Shown in pieces: positions 5,981 to 25,963 of a stretch of DNA of 64,000 nt. The position numbers were made by a program, and so were the translations under genes. Every line of letters begins with the position of its first letter. The stretch's first letter is position 1. The DNA lies in assembly GCA_039189765.1 (NCBI GenBank), contig JBCCYL010000008.1:32001-96000 (forward strand). The letters run 5' to 3'. This DNA comes from Cyanobacteria bacterium P01_F01_bin.150. Its GTDB lineage: Bacteria; Cyanobacteriota; Cyanobacteriia; CAKZMO01. The notes beneath the pieces are model-generated. The model ran no database searches. It was given only the letters and a program-made list of their open reading frames with translations, and was not told the origin of the DNA.

Positions 5981-12679
<6,699 letters not shown>

Positions 12680-14108: not shown

Positions 14109-16811
14109 CTATTGGACATGGGCAACGGTAACACCACTGCCACCATCTGCCTTATCCGCAGGTTCAAAGCGAGACACTTGGGGATGTTGCTTCAGAAAGG
14201 CTTGGACACCTTTGCGCAACTTACCCGTACCATGTCCATGAATAATCCATAATGGCCCTCCAAGGGAAGAGGCGATCGCCCGATCGATCTCAATCTCCGC
14301 ATCTGCGACTCGACTCCCCCTCAAGTCCAAAGTATTACGAGAGGTACGCACGGCGGGCTGACTTGGCTGAGATTCAGGCACAGCTACTTTTTTCTCAGGG
14401 GTCATTTTAGACGCTTTTTCTTTCTCAGGTACCACCGCTTTAATACCCTGCAACGACTCTACATCTTCCAGTGCTACAGTCATTTTCATTAGGCCAAATC
14501 GCACCGACATTTCCCCATCGGCATCGGGCAGAGTCAACACCTCCGCCACCTGATCAATGCGAGGAATCCGGACGCGATCGCCGACCTTAGGCTCATAGCC
14601 CACTTTCTTTTTCTTCTTCGCCTCCATCTTCCGTTTCTGACGTTCGGCGATTCTATCCAAATCATTAGTTGCCTTATGAGCATCCTGGGCAGTCGTGGTA
14701 CCTTGCTGGAGAGTCCGAATCACCTTAGCAATTTCCCCTTTCGCTTGAGAAATAGCATTTTGAACTTCTTTATCCTGCTGCCGTTGGAGAGCTTTTTCAC
14801 GCTTTTTCAGTAAGTTCGCTTTGCGCAAGACCTCATCATGGAGCTGTTCCGCCTGACGCACCAAAACATTGGCCTCCTGTGCCTTCTGTTCCTGTTCCCG
14901 ACGCTGCTCCTCTAATCCGGCAATAACTTCGTTGACATCCTCATTAGACTGCAAACCCACCTGTTGACGAGCCTGGGCAATCACGCTTTCATTTAGCCCC
15001 AACCGACCAGCAATCGATAGTGCGTTGGAGCGCCCTGGAATTCCCCACAATAAACGATAGGTTGGGGACATACTGACATCATCAAATTCTACCGACGCAT
15101 TTTCAAATCGTTCATCCTGATACTTGAGAGATTTCAGCTCACCAAAGTGGGTAGTGGCAATGGAGAGATACGCATGGTCAGCAAGATGTTGGAGAAGGGC
15201 GATCGCCAATGCGCTACCTTCAGTTGGGTCAGTACCCGCACCAACCTCATCGAGAAGAACAAGGGATTTTGGATTTTGGATTTTGGATTTTAGACCTTGG
15301 AGGGTTGTGGAGTTGGAGGGTTGTGGAGTTAAAGAGTTAGCATTTTCCAATAGCTCCTCTGCTCCCCTGCTCCCCTGCTCCCCTGCTCCTCTGCTCCCCT
15401 GCTCCTCCGCTCCCCTGCTCCCCTGCTCCTCTGCTCCTCCGCTTCCTCGCTCCTCTACTCCCCCGCTCCCCTGCTCAGCATCGGGGTCAAGCTCATGCAG
15501 TAACTCAGCCAACTGTTCGTCTTCATCGGCAGGCTTTTCAGCAGAGGATTCGAGAGGCGACGGTTCAAGAGGCTGGAGGGCATCGAGGATGCGACTAATG
15601 CGGCGAATATGCCCAGAAAAAGTCGAAAGGCTTTGCTGAAGAGACTGTTCGTCTCCAATATCTGCTAACACTTGATCAAACCAGGGTAGCTCTACCGGCT
15701 CACGGGCGGGAATAAACAGACCCACTTTGGCCATAAGCGCAGTAATACCCAACGTTTTTAAGGTGACGGTTTTGCCGCCAGTGTTGGGTCCAGTAATCGC
15801 CACTACACGAATCTGAGGCTGAATATTAACATCAATGGGAACGACCTCTGGCCCCTCTTCGTGATGTTGCAGCCATACGAGAAGAGGATGTCGCAATTGT
15901 CGGAGCACCACTCGCTCATTGTCAGACCGTTCTATAAAACGCGGAGGATTGGCCTCTAGCCACAGACTGTAACGAGCACGGGCTGAAGCAAGATCAAGGG
16001 TAGTGCAAATCACCAACAAGCGCTCAATATCCGGAATAACTTCAGCGACTTTTTCAGTAAGCACGGAGCGAATTTTCTCTTCCTGGGCCTGCTCCTGTCG
16101 TAATGCTTGGCGTAGCTGATTACCTAAAGAAATAACCGCTTGAGGCTCCACGTAAAGAGTTGCACCACTGGCGGAGGCATCATGAACAACACCAGGAATC
16201 TTATCTTTTTGAGGCGCTTTAATGGGTAGCACAAAGCGATCGCCCCGCTGAGTCATCACCATTTCTTGCATAGCGCCGCTATGGCGCTGCATAATGCGCT
16301 GAAGACTGGTGCGGATGCGATCGCGCACCTCTTTAACTTTTTGTCGAATTCCACTCAGTTGCGGATTCGCTCGGTCAGTAACTTTGCCCTGATCGTCAAT
16401 ACAGCGATGAATCTCTTTTTCTAGTTCAGGATAAGTCCGTAACTGTGTAACTAGCGATTGGAGTACGGGTACATCTTCTTGGGCATCAATCGTGCGCCGT
16501 AGGCTCCGGGCAGCGGCAAAAGTCGTTGCCACATTCAAGAGCTGATCACCCGATAAAATACCTTTGCGCTCTGCCCGCTCCAGTGGCTCCCAAATATCCT
16601 CCAATCCATCAAACTTAAGTCCCGTTACCAAGGTGGTCTCTAGATAGTACATTTCCTTGGTTTGGATTAAGAGCGATTCACTCTCTGCTTTCGTGGAAGG
16701 AATGACTAGGCGCTGAGCCGCCATCATCCCTAACTTCGTCGCAGCAAACGTGGAAAGCTGCTGACAGAGACGGGACCATTCAAGTAGTTCAAGAGTTTCA
16801 GATTGAATCAA
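14109..16811 (-). CDS. mutS2: MutS2 with C-terminal Smr domain
   Basis: TGPNTGGKT, DIGDEQSLQQSLSTFSGH, LLDEVGAGTDP, Smr motifs LDLRG..IIHGHGTGKL. Carries an ~100-aa repeat-derived insert. Confidence 0.95.
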   Translation of the reverse strand: MIQSETLELLEWSRLCQQLSTFAATKLGMMAAQRLVIPSTKAESESLLIQTKEMYYLETTLVTGLKFDGLEDIWEPLERAERKGILSGDQLLNVATTFAAARSLRRTIDAQEDVPVLQSLVTQLRTYPELEKEIHRCIDDQGKVTDRANPQLSGIRQKVKEVRDRIRTSLQRIMQRHSGAMQEMVMTQRGDRFVLPIKAPQKDKIPGVVHDASASGATLYVEPQAVISLGNQLRQALRQEQAQEEKIRSVLTEKVAEVIPDIERLLVICTTLDLASARARYSLWLEANPPRFIERSDNERVVLRQLRHPLLVWLQHHEEGPEVVPIDVNIQPQIRVVAITGPNTGGKTVTLKTLGITALMAKVGLFIPAREPVELPWFDQVLADIGDEQSLQQSLSTFSGHIRRISRILDALQPLEPSPLESSAEKPADEDEQLAELLHELDPDAEQGSGGVEERGSGGAEEQGSRGAEEQGSRGAGEQGSRGAEELLENANSLTPQPSNSTTLQGLKSKIQNPKSLVLLDEVGAGTDPTEGSALAIALLQHLADHAYLSIATTHFGELKSLKYQDERFENASVEFDDVSMSPTYRLLWGIPGRSNALSIAGRLGLNESVIAQARQQVGLQSNEDVNEVIAGLEEQRREQEQKAQEANVLVRQAEQLHDEVLRKANLLKKREKALQRQQDKEVQNAISQAKGEIAKVIRTLQQGTTTAQDAHKATNDLDRIAERQKRKMEAKKKKKVGYEPKVGDRVRIPRIDQVAEVLTLPDADGEMSVRFGLMKMTVALEDVESLQGIKAVVPEKEKASKMTPEKKVAVPESQPSQPAVRTSRNTLDLRGSRVADAEIEIDRAIASSLGGPLWIIHGHGTGKLRKGVQAFLKQHPQVSRFEPADKADGGSGVTVAHVQ
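15264..15476. repeat. Composite microsatellite inside mutS2: (GGATTTT)x4, ~5 GGAGTTGG-like 8-mers, 15 GCTCCCCT-like 8-mers
   Basis: Read directly: heptamers 15264-15291, 8-mers ~15299-15340, 15 full 8-mers 15353-15472. Confidence 0.92.
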
Positions 16812-18399: not shown

Positions 18400-19605
18400 A
18401 TGATTTCAATTCAACGTGCCGCCTCTTCCAATACATTTCGTAATACTATCCAAGATATTCTTAACCAGGCAGACATTGAAATTAACGGCGATCGCCCGTG
18501 GGATATTCAAGTACATGACGAGCATTTTTTTAGACGTCTGCTTGCAGAGGGATCTATGGCGGCTGGGGAAGCTTATATGGACGGATGGTGGGATTGTCAA
18601 CAGCTCGATGAATTCTTTGCTAAACTACTGCGCTGTAAGTTAGAAGATGCCTTTAAACATTGGACAATTGTACAAATTATTCAAGCAAAGCTGCTTAATT
18701 TTCAGTCTATTTATCGAGCATTTACGGTGGGAAAACGGCACTATGATTTAGGAAACGATCTGTATACCGCAATGCTGGACGATCATCTTATTTATAGCTG
18801 CGGCTATTGGCAGAATGTCGATACCTTAGAAGCAGCTCAGTTAGCTAAGCTGGATCTAATTGCCCGTAAGCTGGATTTACAGCCTGGCATGAGAGTCATG
18901 GACATCGGCTGTGGTTGGGGCAGCACCGCTAAGTATTTAGCCCAAACCTATGGAGTCAGCGTTATTGGCATTACCGTGTCGGAAGAACAGGCCGTTTATG
19001 CCAGAAAACTTTGTGAGGGGTTGCCCGTTGAAATTCGTCTTCAGGATTATCGAGAAATGGGTCGAGATATGAAACAAGGACGAGAGAATAAATGCGATCG
19101 CATTCTTTCCGTGGGTATGTTCGAGCATGTAGGCTACAAAAACTATCGCACTTTTTTTGAATGCGTTACCTCCTGTCTCAAGCAAGATGGCCGCTTCTTA
19201 CTCCACACTATCGGCACCAATATTTTGACAGTACGCACCGATCCTTGGATCGAACGATATATTTTTCCTAACTCCATGGTCCCCTGTGAACAATATGTAG
19301 CATCAGCCTTTAATGGATTGATGGTGCTGGAAGATTGGCATAATTTTGGACCAGACTATGACAAAACACTAATGGCATGGCACCACAATTTTCATCAGGC
19401 ATGGTCTAGCCTAAAAGAGCAATATGGCGATCGCTTTTCATCCAGTAAGCAGGATCGTCTACATGATAGTTCTGTACGTTTTTACAGAATGTGGACCTAC
19501 TATCTGCTGAGCTGTGCCGGGTCATTTCGCGCCCGCAAAAATCACGTTTGGCAACTGTTATTGACACCCCATGGTATTCCAGGAGGATATACCGTTGCTC
19601 GCTAA
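18400..19605 (+). CDS. cfa: Cyclopropane-fatty-acyl-phospholipid synthase
   Basis: HYDLGNDLY, YSCGYW, DIGCGWG, SVGMFEHVG, DPWIERYIFP. Confidence 0.95.
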   Translation: MISIQRAASSNTFRNTIQDILNQADIEINGDRPWDIQVHDEHFFRRLLAEGSMAAGEAYMDGWWDCQQLDEFFAKLLRCKLEDAFKHWTIVQIIQAKLLNFQSIYRAFTVGKRHYDLGNDLYTAMLDDHLIYSCGYWQNVDTLEAAQLAKLDLIARKLDLQPGMRVMDIGCGWGSTAKYLAQTYGVSVIGITVSEEQAVYARKLCEGLPVEIRLQDYREMGRDMKQGRENKCDRILSVGMFEHVGYKNYRTFFECVTSCLKQDGRFLLHTIGTNILTVRTDPWIERYIFPNSMVPCEQYVASAFNGLMVLEDWHNFGPDYDKTLMAWHHNFHQAWSSLKEQYGDRFSSSKQDRLHDSSVRFYRMWTYYLLSCAGSFRARKNHVWQLLLTPHGIPGGYTVAR

Positions 19606-19613
19606 ATCAATGA

Positions 19614-19640
19614 GGGGAAAATCTCTGCGAGATTTTCCCC
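19614..19640. terminator. Perfect hairpin between convergent cfa and mcdB-like genes
   Basis: GGGGAAAATCTC-tgc-GAGATTTTCCCC (12-bp stem); U-tracts weak. Confidence 0.55.
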
Positions 19641-19661
19641 CAAAATAAAGCTGACGCGTTA

Positions 19662-21362
19662 CTAGTCGTACCATCCCATTTCTGAACTAGATCCGTTTTG
19701 GCCATCTTTAGAGCCTGGTTTCATCGAAGCCCTCCGCACTTTTTTATATTTAGGCGTCAAGAAACGACCTTCTTTCTTAGCCATAGGAGTAGTAGAATTT
19801 GTGCGAGCCAACTGAGAGGTGGAGTTCGTCTCTGCATCAGAGAGCTGTTGAATTTGGGTTTTAGCTTTCGCCAATTCAGCTTTTACCTTCTCCGTCTGTT
19901 TCACCTCTTTCTTCAGAGTTTGAACTGAAGCCTTTTCTTTCTTCAAATCGGCTTGGAGAGCAGCAATCTTTTTTTGTAAGACTTGCTCTTTACCAGTATT
20001 TGTATCTGCCAACTTGAGGATAGTTTTCTTTGCGTCCGTCAACTCAGCGGTGAGTTTATCAACCTTTTTCACCTCTTTCTTTAATTTCTGCACCTCAGCT
20101 TTTTCTTGCTTTAAGCGAGTTTCTAAATCAGTCACTTTTTTCTGACCAGCTTGAGCAGAACCGTTGGAACCCTGTTTGAGTTGCGACTGCAAACGGGTAA
20201 TTTGTTTTTGTAAGGCTCCTTCTGCCTTACGCGCAAGCTGTAATTCCGCTTTCGCATCTTCCAACATGACTTCTATTTGAGCCTTAGTCGGTGGCCGTTT
20301 ACGTTGTGCCGCTGGTTTACTAGCAGTTGTTGCGGCTTTAGTAGAAGTTTTAGCAGGTGATGTAGATTTAGACGTACTCGACTTAGATGTACTCTTGGGT
20401 GCAGATGATGTGGGTTTTGAGGTTACTTTACTGTTGCCATTGCTGGCTGCTTTCGACGTCTTAGTAGCTGATTGGTTTCCCGGTGTCTTAGCAGAGGTGG
20501 AGCTTTTAGCCGTTGTAGACTTAATAGTTGATTTACTACCAGGTTTTGATGCCGTAGTATTTGCTGGTGAAGATTTTTGATTAGCAGGCTTAGCCACAGT
20601 TTTCGACGCTGTGGCTTTAGTTGAAGCCGATGTGGGCGCAGCCTTCGATTTTGTCGCTGCTTTAGACGGTGTTGTTTTAGATGCTGACGTTTTAGATGCT
20701 GATGCTTTTGGCGTTGTTTTAGTGGATGCAGTCTTAGCTTTAGATGCTGATGCTTTTGTTGCTGTTGGAGTGGATGTAGCCTTAGACTTAGACACTGATG
20801 CAGTCTTAGCTTTAGACGCTGATGCTTTTGTTGCTGCTTGAGTGGATGTAGCCTTAGACTTAGACACTGATGCAGTCTTGGCTTTAGACGCTGGTGCTTT
20901 TGTTGCTGTTTGAGTGGATGCAGCCTTAGCTTTAGATGTTGCGGCTTTAGCTACAGACTGAGATGTAGTGGACGCCGCTTTAGATGCTGATGCCTTTGCC
21001 GCGCTAGATTTGGGGGTCGATTTAGGCGTTGCTTTAGGGGTTTTAGCTTTACTTGTTGTCGATTTAGCGGTCGTTTTAGCCTCGGTTTTCGACGCTGGCT
21101 TAACTGTCGATTTCGCAGTCAAGGATTTTGATGGTGACGATTTCTTCGTGGCAGTAGACGTCGTTTTAGCCTTACTATCAGTCGATGCTGTAGATGCTTT
21201 TGATGTAGATTTACGGGTTGTTGTTTTACTGCCTGTCGATTTACGAGCGGCTGTTTTATTAGCTGTAGATTTACTTGTCATCTTATTACCTGTAGACGCT
21301 ACGTCAGTAGCAGCCTTACCAGCTTCTTCTTTTAATAGATCTGCAATTCGTTTTTTAGCCAT
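19662..21362 (-). CDS. mcdB: McdB-like carboxysome positioning protein with a histone-H1-like K/A/S/T-rich region and duplicated coiled coil
   Basis: ATG overlaps the ParA stop (TAATG, with GGAGG upstream); basic N-terminus MAKKRIADLLKEE; coiled coil; Trp three residues from the end (MGWYD). These match traits described for cyanobacterial McdB. Confidence 0.62.
   Translation of the reverse strand: MAKKRIADLLKEEAGKAATDVASTGNKMTSKSTANKTAARKSTGSKTTTRKSTSKASTASTDSKAKTTSTATKKSSPSKSLTAKSTVKPASKTEAKTTAKSTTSKAKTPKATPKSTPKSSAAKASASKAASTTSQSVAKAATSKAKAASTQTATKAPASKAKTASVSKSKATSTQAATKASASKAKTASVSKSKATSTPTATKASASKAKTASTKTTPKASASKTSASKTTPSKAATKSKAAPTSASTKATASKTVAKPANQKSSPANTTASKPGSKSTIKSTTAKSSTSAKTPGNQSATKTSKAASNGNSKVTSKPTSSAPKSTSKSSTSKSTSPAKTSTKAATTASKPAAQRKRPPTKAQIEVMLEDAKAELQLARKAEGALQKQITRLQSQLKQGSNGSAQAGQKKVTDLETRLKQEKAEVQKLKKEVKKVDKLTAELTDAKKTILKLADTNTGKEQVLQKKIAALQADLKKEKASVQTLKKEVKQTEKVKAELAKAKTQIQQLSDAETNSTSQLARTNSTTPMAKKEGRFLTPKYKKVRRASMKPGSKDGQNGSSSEMGWYD
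20725..20935. repeat. 72-bp (24-aa) tandem repeat, ~3 copies
   Basis: GATGCAGTCTT(A/G)GCTTTAGA recurs at 20725, 20797 and 20869; encodes ASVSKSKATSTQAATKASASKAKT-like units. Confidence 0.88.
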
Positions 21363-22003
21363 TAGTTCCTCCAATCCTGCTGTATTTCATCTGCTATTGA
21401 TCGATAATCCGACTGCGCGGCTCTTCCATGTCGTCCTTTCCACTGTGTAATGGCCACTCCTTGGAGTGCTGCCTGTTCATGAGCTTTATAGGCGCGAATA
21501 AAGGTGCTGCAAACTGGAATAGCCAATGATTCAAGAGTGTCTTGGGCTTCCACTGCAATATTTGAACTACGAGGATCAACCCGAGTCAGCAATACTCGAT
21601 AGGATACTTTTGTCGGCTTTACCGTTTTTTTTACTGTTTCTATCAACGCTGCTAAATCCATCGGGGCTGGAGGGGTTGGCAAAATAAGATAGTCAGATAA
21701 AGGTACCAGATCTTTCAAGGTTTTAGAATCAAGATGGGGAGGAGTATCAATCACTATTACCCCATATTTCCCATTTTTTTTCAGTTGCTTTAGCTTTCTC
21801 GGATTTGTTTCTTGGCTCAGATCAAACCCCATGCCAGCTTCGTTTCTTCCAGCCCACCAAGTAGCAGACCCCTGGGGGTCTGCATCCACTAAGAGAACAG
21901 GACAGGTTTCCGATAATACGGCAGCCAGGTTGACCGCTGTCGTTGTTTTACCAACGCCGCCTTTTCCATTTAATATCCCCAAAATTTTCATTGTGTGGGA
22001 CAT
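21362..22003 (-). CDS. mcdA: ParA/MinD-family ATPase, probable McdA
   Basis: Deviant Walker A KGGVGKTT, DADPQGSATWW, IDTPP; no parB neighbour; coupled to an McdB-like gene. Confidence 0.72.
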   Translation of the reverse strand: MSHTMKILGILNGKGGVGKTTTAVNLAAVLSETCPVLLVDADPQGSATWWAGRNEAGMGFDLSQETNPRKLKQLKKNGKYGVIVIDTPPHLDSKTLKDLVPLSDYLILPTPPAPMDLAALIETVKKTVKPTKVSYRVLLTRVDPRSSNIAVEAQDTLESLAIPVCSTFIRAYKAHEQAALQGVAITQWKGRHGRAAQSDYRSIADEIQQDWRN

Positions 22004-22308
22004 AAGCGTAAAAAATATCTCCTCAAGAAAGATGGAATCGTCAGCATGTTTATAATGTTGCGTCTAAATATGCTGATGTTTGATGCAATGAATTATCTTG
22101 ACGCTTTAAAGATAACGCTAACATTCAAATATAAGCTAAATGTGTACTGTTGAGGGCTGTTTCACTGATTGTTACGTTACTTCACCATTTTATAGTGTAT
22201 TTACCAAATTAAAAATTGAGTTGAGAAGAATTTCATTGAACACTGGGATATTTCGAGCCTCAGAATCTTGCATTAAAAGATAATCATTTTTATCTAAGAT
22301 CAATATCT

Positions 22309-24898: not shown

Positions 24899-25963
24899 CT
24901 AGGCGTTGCGCTTAGCCATCTGCTGTTCATCCAGCCATGCAACGCCCGCACCAATAGCTTCCGCTAAGGTACTAACCAATCGATAGAGCGCTACGGCACT
25001 TAGAATAATGCCGGTGGACAGGGTAGTGCTTTGGCCGAGGAGAGCGATCGCCGTTGCTTCAAATACCCCAATGCCCCCAGGTGCCCCTGGAATCACAAGT
25101 CCCAACATCCAAGCCAAACTAAACCCACTCAAAACAGCAGGCAGTTCGCTCCAGTTAAGAGACGTTAAAGCCATTAAAACAGCCACAAATCCCAAACTGC
25201 GGAAGCCGAGAAATATCAGTTCTCCGAATAAGGGAAGAAATGGGTAGCGTTTGAGTTGTGTGGAACCAGTTGGGATTTTAGATTTTGGAGAGTTGGAGAG
25301 TTGGGGAGTTGAGGAGTTGGGGAGTTGGGCAACTCCGATCCCCCTCCTCGGAGGGGCTAGGGGTGGGTTCTTCTGCCTTCTACCTTCTGCCTTCTGCCTT
25401 TTTACCCCCTTCAGATTTTGCAGACGCAAAACGGACTGAAGCTTACCTACTTTTAATCGTTTAAGAAGCCGATTAAGAAGGCGGGGATGAACGCTCAATA
25501 GCCCAACAATTAAGCAGAGGAGCTGTAGCGCAATATTGAGTTGCTGACTGGACAATAGACCAACCAATAACGCTGAAGCTGCCATCAGTAAGGCTTCCAT
25601 TACTACACTGACCGTGCTGGCTTCAATAGGAATATCTATCGATTTTGCCGTCATCACCCGACCATAAAAATGCCATATATTGCCGGGTAAATATTTAGCA
25701 ATATTGGTTTTGAGATAAGTGATCACGCTCCAGCTACCCATTGCTTGAGGATGATTTAGCTCACCCAGAATCCAGCCCCATACCCAACCTGACCAAATAT
25801 GAGCCAGTAGAGTTATCCCGGTGGCAGCAACGATGCAGGCCCAGCCCGCAGCGGTGACTCGAATGGTAGAAATATCTTTCCAGTTAGCTTGTAGCGTCTG
25901 GAACAAGAAGAAAAAGACGCCGCCTAGGATAAACCACTTGAGACTTGCTTTCAGTCGCTTCAT
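24899..25963 (-). CDS. Lysylphosphatidylglycerol synthase-like (UPF0104) membrane protein
   Basis: KYLPGNIW, PGAPGGIGVFE, ALYRLVS; multiple TM helices; repeat-derived insert in a loop. Confidence 0.82.
   Translation of the reverse strand: MKRLKASLKWFILGGVFFFLFQTLQANWKDISTIRVTAAGWACIVAATGITLLAHIWSGWVWGWILGELNHPQAMGSWSVITYLKTNIAKYLPGNIWHFYGRVMTAKSIDIPIEASTVSVVMEALLMAASALLVGLLSSQQLNIALQLLCLIVGLLSVHPRLLNRLLKRLKVGKLQSVLRLQNLKGVKRQKAEGRRQKNPPLAPPRRGIGVAQLPNSSTPQLSNSPKSKIPTGSTQLKRYPFLPLFGELIFLGFRSLGFVAVLMALTSLNWSELPAVLSGFSLAWMLGLVIPGAPGGIGVFEATAIALLGQSTTLSTGIILSAVALYRLVSTLAEAIGAGVAWLDEQQMAKRNA
25273..25398. repeat. Composite repeat inside CDS: GGATTTT-like x2, GGAGAGTT-like x5, palindrome CCCCTCC-tc-GGAGGGG, TTCTGCC-like x4
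   Basis: Read directly from the sequence. Confidence 0.88.

Follow-up and report, generated by a model that had tools for sequence, protein, structure and literature searches.

A Record-Length Polycationic McdB in a Cyanobacterial Type 2 McdAB Operon, and Its Possible Role as a Nucleoid Tether

Introduction

In the McdAB system, ATP-bound McdA coats the nucleoid, and the first ~20 residues of McdB release McdA from DNA. Can the adaptor of such a ParA system also hold its cargo on the nucleoid directly? The question is raised by one gene pair in a 64,000-nucleotide (nt) stretch of Cyanobacteria bacterium P01_F01_bin.150 (assembly GCA_039189765.1, contig JBCCYL010000008.1, positions 32,001 to 96,000 of the forward strand), referred to here as the window. 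On its minus strand, mcdA (21362..22003), which encodes a ParA-family ATPase of 213 amino acids (aa), is coupled to mcdB (19662..21362; 566 aa) through TAATG, where the mcdA stop overlaps the mcdB ATG. A preliminary description of the window had singled out this pair for its coupling, for the KGGVGKT and SATWW motifs of the ATPase, and for the size of its partner, all of which are borne out.

What sets this McdB apart is an arm of ~330 residues built almost exclusively of Lys, Ala, Ser, Thr, and Pro (K/A/S/T/P). A function for this polycationic region is supported indirectly. With a probability of about 0.55, we favor the reading that the arm would serve as a long, weak, non-specific DNA tether between the carboxysome-binding end of McdB and its McdA-activating peptide.

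A Type 2 McdA and Its Partner

The gene pair is very probably a Type 2 McdA/McdB operon. Type 2 McdAs have been described as proteins of 210–228 aa with a signature Lys, two extra Thr, and a double Trp, followed by a short insertion and by conserved Phe, Glu, and Pro (PMC7182216). The ATPase falls within this size range, carries the signature Lys and two additional Thr in its Walker A motif (GKGGVGKTTT), and has W49 and W50, a short insertion, F60, E65, and P68 after Walker A′. It is 62% identical to McdA of PCC 7702, a strain tabulated in PMC7182216, and its C-terminal half shares 58–65% identity across its length with loci from named Nostocales, a tabulated strain among them; the other ParAs of the genome are only 31–35% identical to it. 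In a FastTree phylogeny, unrooted and built without a ParA outgroup, it nests within 172 McdB-linked ATPases. It matches NCBIfam NF041546 with an E value of 1e-36, under the model's cut-off, and a sequence search of the PDB returns generic ParAs.

The 566-aa partner lies directly 3′ of mcdA. Its N-terminus is charged, basic then acidic; a Trp stands within the last four residues; helices with a heptad pattern (aa 360–511) form a coiled coil that the arm displaces towards the C-terminus; and the protein is polar, of low complexity, and predicted to be disordered (grand average of hydropathy −0.93). A profile made with 170 other McdBs finds it as the best match in the genome (E = 2.8e-28), the comparison that the preliminary description had called for, and it is the sole significant match to a profile of the McdB N-terminal peptide (E = 3.7e-6). 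The McdAB-like identity first proposed is supported by these Type 2 features. Pfam and NCBIfam gave McdB only generic coiled-coil matches, and its nearest ESM Atlas clusters are cyanobacterial proteins scoring below 0.9.

The pair thus shares with Type 2 β-McdAB (PMC7182216) the size and motifs of the ATPase, the coupled gene order, the charged N-terminal peptide, a central coiled coil, the terminal Trp, and low hydrophobicity. It differs in the length of McdB (566 versus 132–394 aa) and of its N-terminal extension (~359 versus 60 ± 23 aa), in having another McdB-like gene in its genome, away from the operon, and in a weak enrichment of Gln, which occurs seven times in aa 384–410 and 18 times across the three helices and makes up 10% of the C-terminal half, compared with 14% in congeners.

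The cargo is likely the β-carboxysome, which the pair would position on the nucleoid. Genes for this organelle are present, with ccmK/L/M/N/O on contig C169 and rbcS on contig C80; a search for CsoS2 was as matchless in controls as in this genome, so that it carries no information on α-carboxysomes. On C169, by names read from translations, ccmK-L-M-N-O is followed immediately by minC-D-E in the same orientation.

The Polycationic Arm

The arm spans aa 25–355 (331 aa; 20298..21290, minus strand) and is 90.3% K/A/S/T/P (Ser 23%, Thr 21%, Ala 21%, Lys 20%, Pro 5%); Asp and Glu occur once each, and Phe, Trp, and Tyr are absent, much as the preliminary description had seen. It contributes +68 to a net charge of +89 for the whole protein, i.e., ~+0.21 per residue, with almost no adjacent lysines. 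When the genome's stop-to-stop frames, 13,491 in all, were scored for K/R/A/S/T/P composition, the tract came first with 191.6, against 93.6 for the next frame, a proline repeat, and is therefore not a product of chance.

The two ends of McdB are retained around it. An AlphaFold model (16-row alignment; mean predicted local distance difference test score, pLDDT, 52) has a helix at aa 2–16, no secondary structure in aa 17–359, where pLDDT is mostly <50, and helices at 360–398, 406–454, and 459–511. The first 16 residues (21315..21362, minus strand), helical in the model and recognized by the N-terminal peptide profile, form the conserved peptide, likely the McdA-activating one by analogy with PMC12139897. 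The three predicted helices or coiled coils (aa 360–511; 19830..20285, minus strand) carry extra lysines on outer b/f heptad positions, and a C-terminal motif with the invariant Trp (GWYD; 19665..19691, minus strand) is likely the carboxysome-binding end, after the role described in PMC11321042; coiled coils followed by a terminal GWYD had been noted before and are found again here. An in-frame TTG four codons 5′ of the ATG would, if used as the start, extend the protein to 570 aa.

The region had also been called histone-H1-like, which is apt for its basic composition and for little else: Lys reaches only 20%, Ser and Thr together make up 44%, PAKK, KAAK, and AKK are absent from the tract (KPAA occurs once), and Pfam yields no histone-type match in McdB at E ≤ 0.1. 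A separate candidate property, enrichment of the H1-type phosphorylation motif S/T-P-x-K, was rejected (3 versus 1.6 expected).

How Unusual Is This McdB?

To place the protein among its relatives, we surveyed 237 loci with a match to the ATPase. Twenty-seven failed the Type 2 filter; from the remaining 210, we set aside 21 without a partner, two spurious short open reading frames (ORFs), one partner cut by a contig end, one without Trp, and 14 duplicates. The resulting 171 McdBs include that of the window and, thus, 170 others, distinct and complete. These measure 135–394 aa (mean 230 ± 43) and carry net charges of −25 to +36 (mean −3.7 ± 8.3), so that the window McdB, at 566 aa and +89, lies outside both ranges. 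The length survey suggested earlier therefore agrees with the claim that known McdBs are usually far shorter, as do the published β-McdBs (132–394 aa, with an N-terminal extension of 60 ± 23 aa; PMC7182216), and the difference is due to the ~330-residue arm. Both extensions and the coiled coil of the window McdB are basic (isoelectric points of 11.4 and 10.3); McdBs positive in both make up ~13% of the published set (PMC7182216). The two complete McdBs from congeners have only 257 and 260 aa, and the linker is likewise short in a third congener, whose gene is truncated at the 3′ end; in the alignment, all excess length falls after the N-terminal peptide and ahead of the motif with which the coiled coil opens.

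Basic tracts as such are not confined to this protein. With a threshold of 40 aa and a net charge of +8, chosen after the data had been seen, 30 of the 170 other McdBs carry a tract (40–154 aa; charge density 0.20 ± 0.04), and these are scattered over the McdA tree, an unrooted FastTree on which the trait changes state at least 10 times. Five further genomes added two WCYD-ending McdBs of 325 and 327 aa with tracts of 164–167 aa (+48), one tract of 76 aa, one tract-free McdB, and one that runs off its contig. The basic-linker McdBs, namely the WCYD/WCFD-ending Acaryochloris type and a Phormidesmis-related clade, have a K/A/S/T tract in the same place and of similar density (~0.2). They differ in tract length (40–167 aa), in total length (at most 327 aa), in charge (up to +48), and in their positions in other parts of the McdA tree, and the WCYD type holds AKK clusters that the window tract lacks. 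The 566-aa McdB is thus the extreme of a recurring trend, not unique in kind.

The closest relatives are harder to compare. Six ATPases, 88–91% identical to that of the window, form a supported clade with it (FastTree). The six closest McdB-like database proteins (P0122 and P0135–P0139; 61–71% identity, 201–209 aa) all start at the Met equivalent to M366 of the window McdB (20265..20267, minus strand) and lack the conserved N-terminal peptide. They appear to be truncated gene calls that hide the N-terminal half, and their genes probably have long N-terminal regions. The window McdB, sought in three forms, is itself absent from the protein collection, so that the lack of long relatives (311–991 aa) there is uninformative. 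Locus searches with only the ATPase as query turned up nothing closely related in genome_contigs, and metagenome_contigs yielded one distant fragment. The long-McdB variant is thus concealed in database proteins.

The system itself is known; an McdB of this length and charge, and a genus with two McdBs (see below), are variants of it that were not found in the literature searched. Judged by titles and the opening of abstracts, no paper among those found describes a lysine-rich or Acaryochloris McdB; figures S2/S4 of PMC7182216 may already show basic N-terminal extensions.

Selection on Charge or a Tolerated Spacer?

The tract looks to be under selection for its composition. Within it, a 72-base pair (bp) in-frame tandem array (20725..20936; 2.9 copies, 93%) is a mark of growth by duplication, and all nine internal repeat segments are in frame. 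Among 95 codon pairs from repeat copies, 28 differ, of which 17 stay within K/A/S/T/P, eight are synonymous, and three leave the set. None changes to Asp or Glu, and the three that leave compare with ~44% expected under single neutral changes (p = 1.6e-4, with pairs not fully independent); second positions differ four times and third positions 14 times. Basic residues are also evenly placed, with lysines mostly 4–5 residues apart: K/R spacing has a variance of 5.1, compared with 16.9 after shuffling (none of 2000 shuffles was as even), KK occurs once instead of the 13.3 times expected, and the evenness persists when the tandem array is set aside (p = 0.007 and 0.0002).

The charge extends into the coiled coil. 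The C-terminal half of McdB carries +19, with +15 to +22 in all six of the closest relatives, compared with +5 to +8 in the short-linker congeners. Its gain in Lys (+8.9 to +11.0 percentage points) exceeds that of all 115 orthologue-like pairs drawn from 227 ORFs on 40 congener contigs (+0.66 ± 1.09; maximum +5.0), and the extra lysines sit at outward b/f positions with e/g balanced (simple register scoring). The coiled coil has, thus, turned basic beyond genome-wide drift.

These data bear on the first of the alternatives, which we consider unlikely: that the arm is a tolerated spacer, grown by in-frame duplication in a repeat-prone genome of lower G+C content, with a charge that has no partner and with selection merely keeping the linker soluble and disordered. 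The in-frame repeats fit this account, as do the high variability of McdB length (PMC7182216), the repeat-like insertions of MutS2 and another window gene, and a mild genome-wide drift towards Lys that includes a more basic tail of topoisomerase I (TopA). However, solubility does not call for the exclusion of Asp and Glu, which together occur twice in the 331 residues, most of the long linkers among McdBs have no net positive charge, being neutral or acidic (e.g., the 394-aa L151 has a net charge of −1), the coiled coil became basic as well, and none of the 115 pairs grew by >200 aa.

A Proposed DNA Tether

Preferring the DNA tether, we picture its action as follows. McdB would retain both of its working ends. 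The first 20 residues of McdB from H. neapolitanus suffice for McdA binding (PMC12139897), and the terminal Trp of McdB is needed for carboxysome association (PMC11321042). Between the two, the arm, helped by the basic outward side of the coiled coil, would attach to the DNA backbone in fast exchange, keeping the activating peptide in the nucleoid and extending its reach; by scaling laws, the coil radius would be ~5–6 nm, versus ~2 nm for a 45-aa linker. The arm could, in this way, give carboxysomes a retention on the nucleoid that does not depend on McdA. The net charge of the McdB N-terminus is reported to tune condensate solubility (PMC10554743), and with such an arm, condensation might come to depend on a polyanion rather than on self-complementary charge. 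That tracts of similar charge density arise in separate parts of the McdA tree counts for a tether.

Precedents for cargo tethering exist in PhaF (PMC3574117) and AlgP (PMC9239181) of Pseudomonas and in the tail of HupB (PMC5676037, PMC5714199), where natively unfolded basic repeats are joined to a cargo- or DNA-binding part and where granule spacing or segregation depends on the basic region. Unlike the window McdB, these proteins have KPAA, PAKK, or KAAK repeats, lack a ParA partner peptide, and have had binding demonstrated; they are not regarded as homologues. We infer that the arm may work like these tails without belonging to their class, from which the absence of PAKK and KAAK motifs sets it apart.

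Several observations weigh against a DNA tether. Two tested McdBs, from S. elongatus (PMC6328274, where McdA is the nucleoid-binding partner) and a Cyanothece homologue (PMC6582323), did not bind DNA. α-McdBs are already biased towards A/P/K/S/T, and a term search of PMC8359340 found no DNA binding for them. The PAKK, KAAK, and AKK clusters typical of H1-type tails are missing from the tract, 140 of the 170 other McdBs have no such tract, and congeners get by with a linker that is short and not basic. Of 31 McdB tracts, only 11 are significantly even in spacing. Firm DNA binding would oppose ratchet movement, and the operon is not near carboxysome genes. Genome composition may also have contributed, with a G+C content of 46.7% compared with 51–54% in congener loci, a TopA tail of +29 versus +14 and +15 in two congeners, and a gain of +3.4 to +5.3 percentage points of Lys in the coiled coil of the orphan McdB-like protein. 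The topoisomerase I gene lies at G000:C15:90754-93666 and ends in a lysine-rich C-terminal tail; a membrane protein at G000:C54:13760-15130, presumably YidC-like, likewise has a basic tail at its end.

An Orphan McdB-like Gene and Other Partners for the Arm

A second McdB-like gene, P0140 (577 aa), lies outside the window at G000:C18:25624-27357 on the plus strand (= L248:7625-9358). Its product is basic over its first 94 aa (+17) and has an acidic region at aa 95–260 (−42), a coiled coil, a long Pro/Ser tail, and a terminal GWFD. It matches the McdB profile with an E value of 4.9e-6, and a profile of such orphans matches operonic mcdB genes in other genomes. It gave no match to the N-terminal peptide profile and has no mcdA nearby, so that we class it as McdB-like only. 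Orthologues occur in all three congeners, i.e., in four of four genomes of the genus, so that it is not a contaminant. More broadly, orphan-type genes are present in 15 of 16 family relatives and in three of four genomes of another family, where Type 2 McdA was not found; within the family, Type 2 McdA was found in 3 of 16 relatives, each belonging to the window's genus, and in none of 13 genomes (80–100% complete) of four other genera. Congeners whose McdB is short, and genera that lack McdA, have an acidic paralogue too. According to a 2021 paper (PMC8359340), two mcdB genes had not been identified in any cyanobacterium, and no later report of one was found within the limited literature searched.

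Counterparts exist among the α-McdBs of proteobacteria (PMC8359340), whose Types 1 and 2 share the A/P/K/S/T bias of the window McdB. Two paralogues occur in 12% of their genomes, and the orphan lacks the conserved charged N-terminus, as in the genus studied here. They differ in length (51–169 aa), in lacking a coiled coil region of the kind seen in the window McdB, and in their association with α-carboxysomes.

Another account is conceivable, if rather improbable: that the arm tunes condensates and coacervates with a polyanion other than DNA, be it polyphosphate (polyP), RNA, the carboxysome surface, or the acidic paralogue. In the last case, the two McdBs would jointly set how much activating peptide is displayed per carboxysome. 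Charge-tuned McdB condensates (PMC10554743), polyP granules near carboxysomes (PMC13556221), a paralogue with a strongly acidic region and the same Trp tail throughout the genus, and the paralogue tuning proposed for α-McdBs (PMC8359340) speak in its favor. Yet, the link between polyP and carboxysomes is independent of McdA/McdB in S. elongatus (PMC13556221), the paralogue is acidic even beside a short McdB or without any McdA, and the e/g heptad positions form no acid–base zipper. An acid–base heterodimer of the two McdB coiled coils was considered separately and is not favored, with e/g charges balanced.

In a further, very unlikely account, the operon serves some cargo besides carboxysomes, and the family-wide orphan is the carboxysome-associated McdB. 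The distribution of orphan and Type 2 McdA genes, the lack of carboxysome genes near the operon, and the reduced number of acidic residues preceding the terminal Trp of McdB would suit such a role, but the Type 2 features described above are kept, the terminal Trp motif among them, carboxysome genes are close by in only ~31% of McdAB loci (PMC7182216), and no plasmid match was found for the locus.

The integrity of the tract was followed in Logan contigs. Those of run X1 tile the region without mismatch, with breaks within the tandem array (20725–20936) and single contigs covering 19400–20797 and 20850–22300; run X1 is possibly the source of the window and, as such, not an independent confirmation, and, given the breaks, the true tract length may differ by about one 24-aa unit. 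Related strains are represented in run X2 by fragments that reach the first codons of the tract and its junction with the coiled coil, with 11 synonymous and five non-synonymous codon changes over the mcdB start and the tract end. No RNA run was listed as holding the sequence; runs X2 and X3 have no cover over most of the tract, which tells nothing of its presence. That misassembly inflated the tract is scarcely credible: the whole tract is known from one genome and contigs break in the array, but the two mismatch-free contigs, the mostly diverged, non-tandem sequence, and the run X2 fragments all speak against it.

Genomic Surroundings

The operon is flanked by genes for a cyclopropane fatty-acid synthase (cfa) and a CxxCxxCC protein, with no carboxysome gene adjacent. 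Between the convergent stops of cfa and mcdB lies a multi-copy hairpin element (19604..19665), a short palindrome, imperfect in its pairing, for which blastn gives 57 hits across the genome (53 of ≥30 nt). It is terminator-like on the minus strand at 19641–19613, and this dispersed intergenic repeat is likely a terminator shared by both genes. A promoter scan around the operon gave a signal no better than chance. In-frame insertions built of short tandem repeats are found in MutS2 (14109–16811, minus strand) and in a lysylphosphatidylglycerol-synthase-domain gene (24899–25963, minus strand). A 2232-aa protein (5981–12679, plus strand) we take to be a fusion of Ser/Thr kinase, AAA, GAF, histidine kinase, and receiver domains.

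Implications for Carboxysome Positioning

McdB has been thought not to touch DNA and merely to remove McdA from it. A tentative extension of our reading, for which we see a possible but smaller chance, is that the genus runs a two-adaptor β-carboxysome system of a kind not described in cyanobacteria, in which a family-wide acidic orphan would be joined by mcdAB, with one sub-clade whose operonic McdB would have turned into a giant polycation acting as a tether or as a coacervate with the paralogue. If true, this would join a ParA ratchet and a passive tether of the PhaF/AlgP type in one protein. The McdB series, from short neutral linkers through tracts of 40–167 residues to the +89 protein described here, offers a graded set for relating reach and charge to organelle spacing and condensates and lets one ask whether a ParA adaptor can double as a direct nucleoid tether. 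Likewise, the orphan paralogue makes an McdA-independent function of McdB testable where most genera appear to be without Type 2 McdA.

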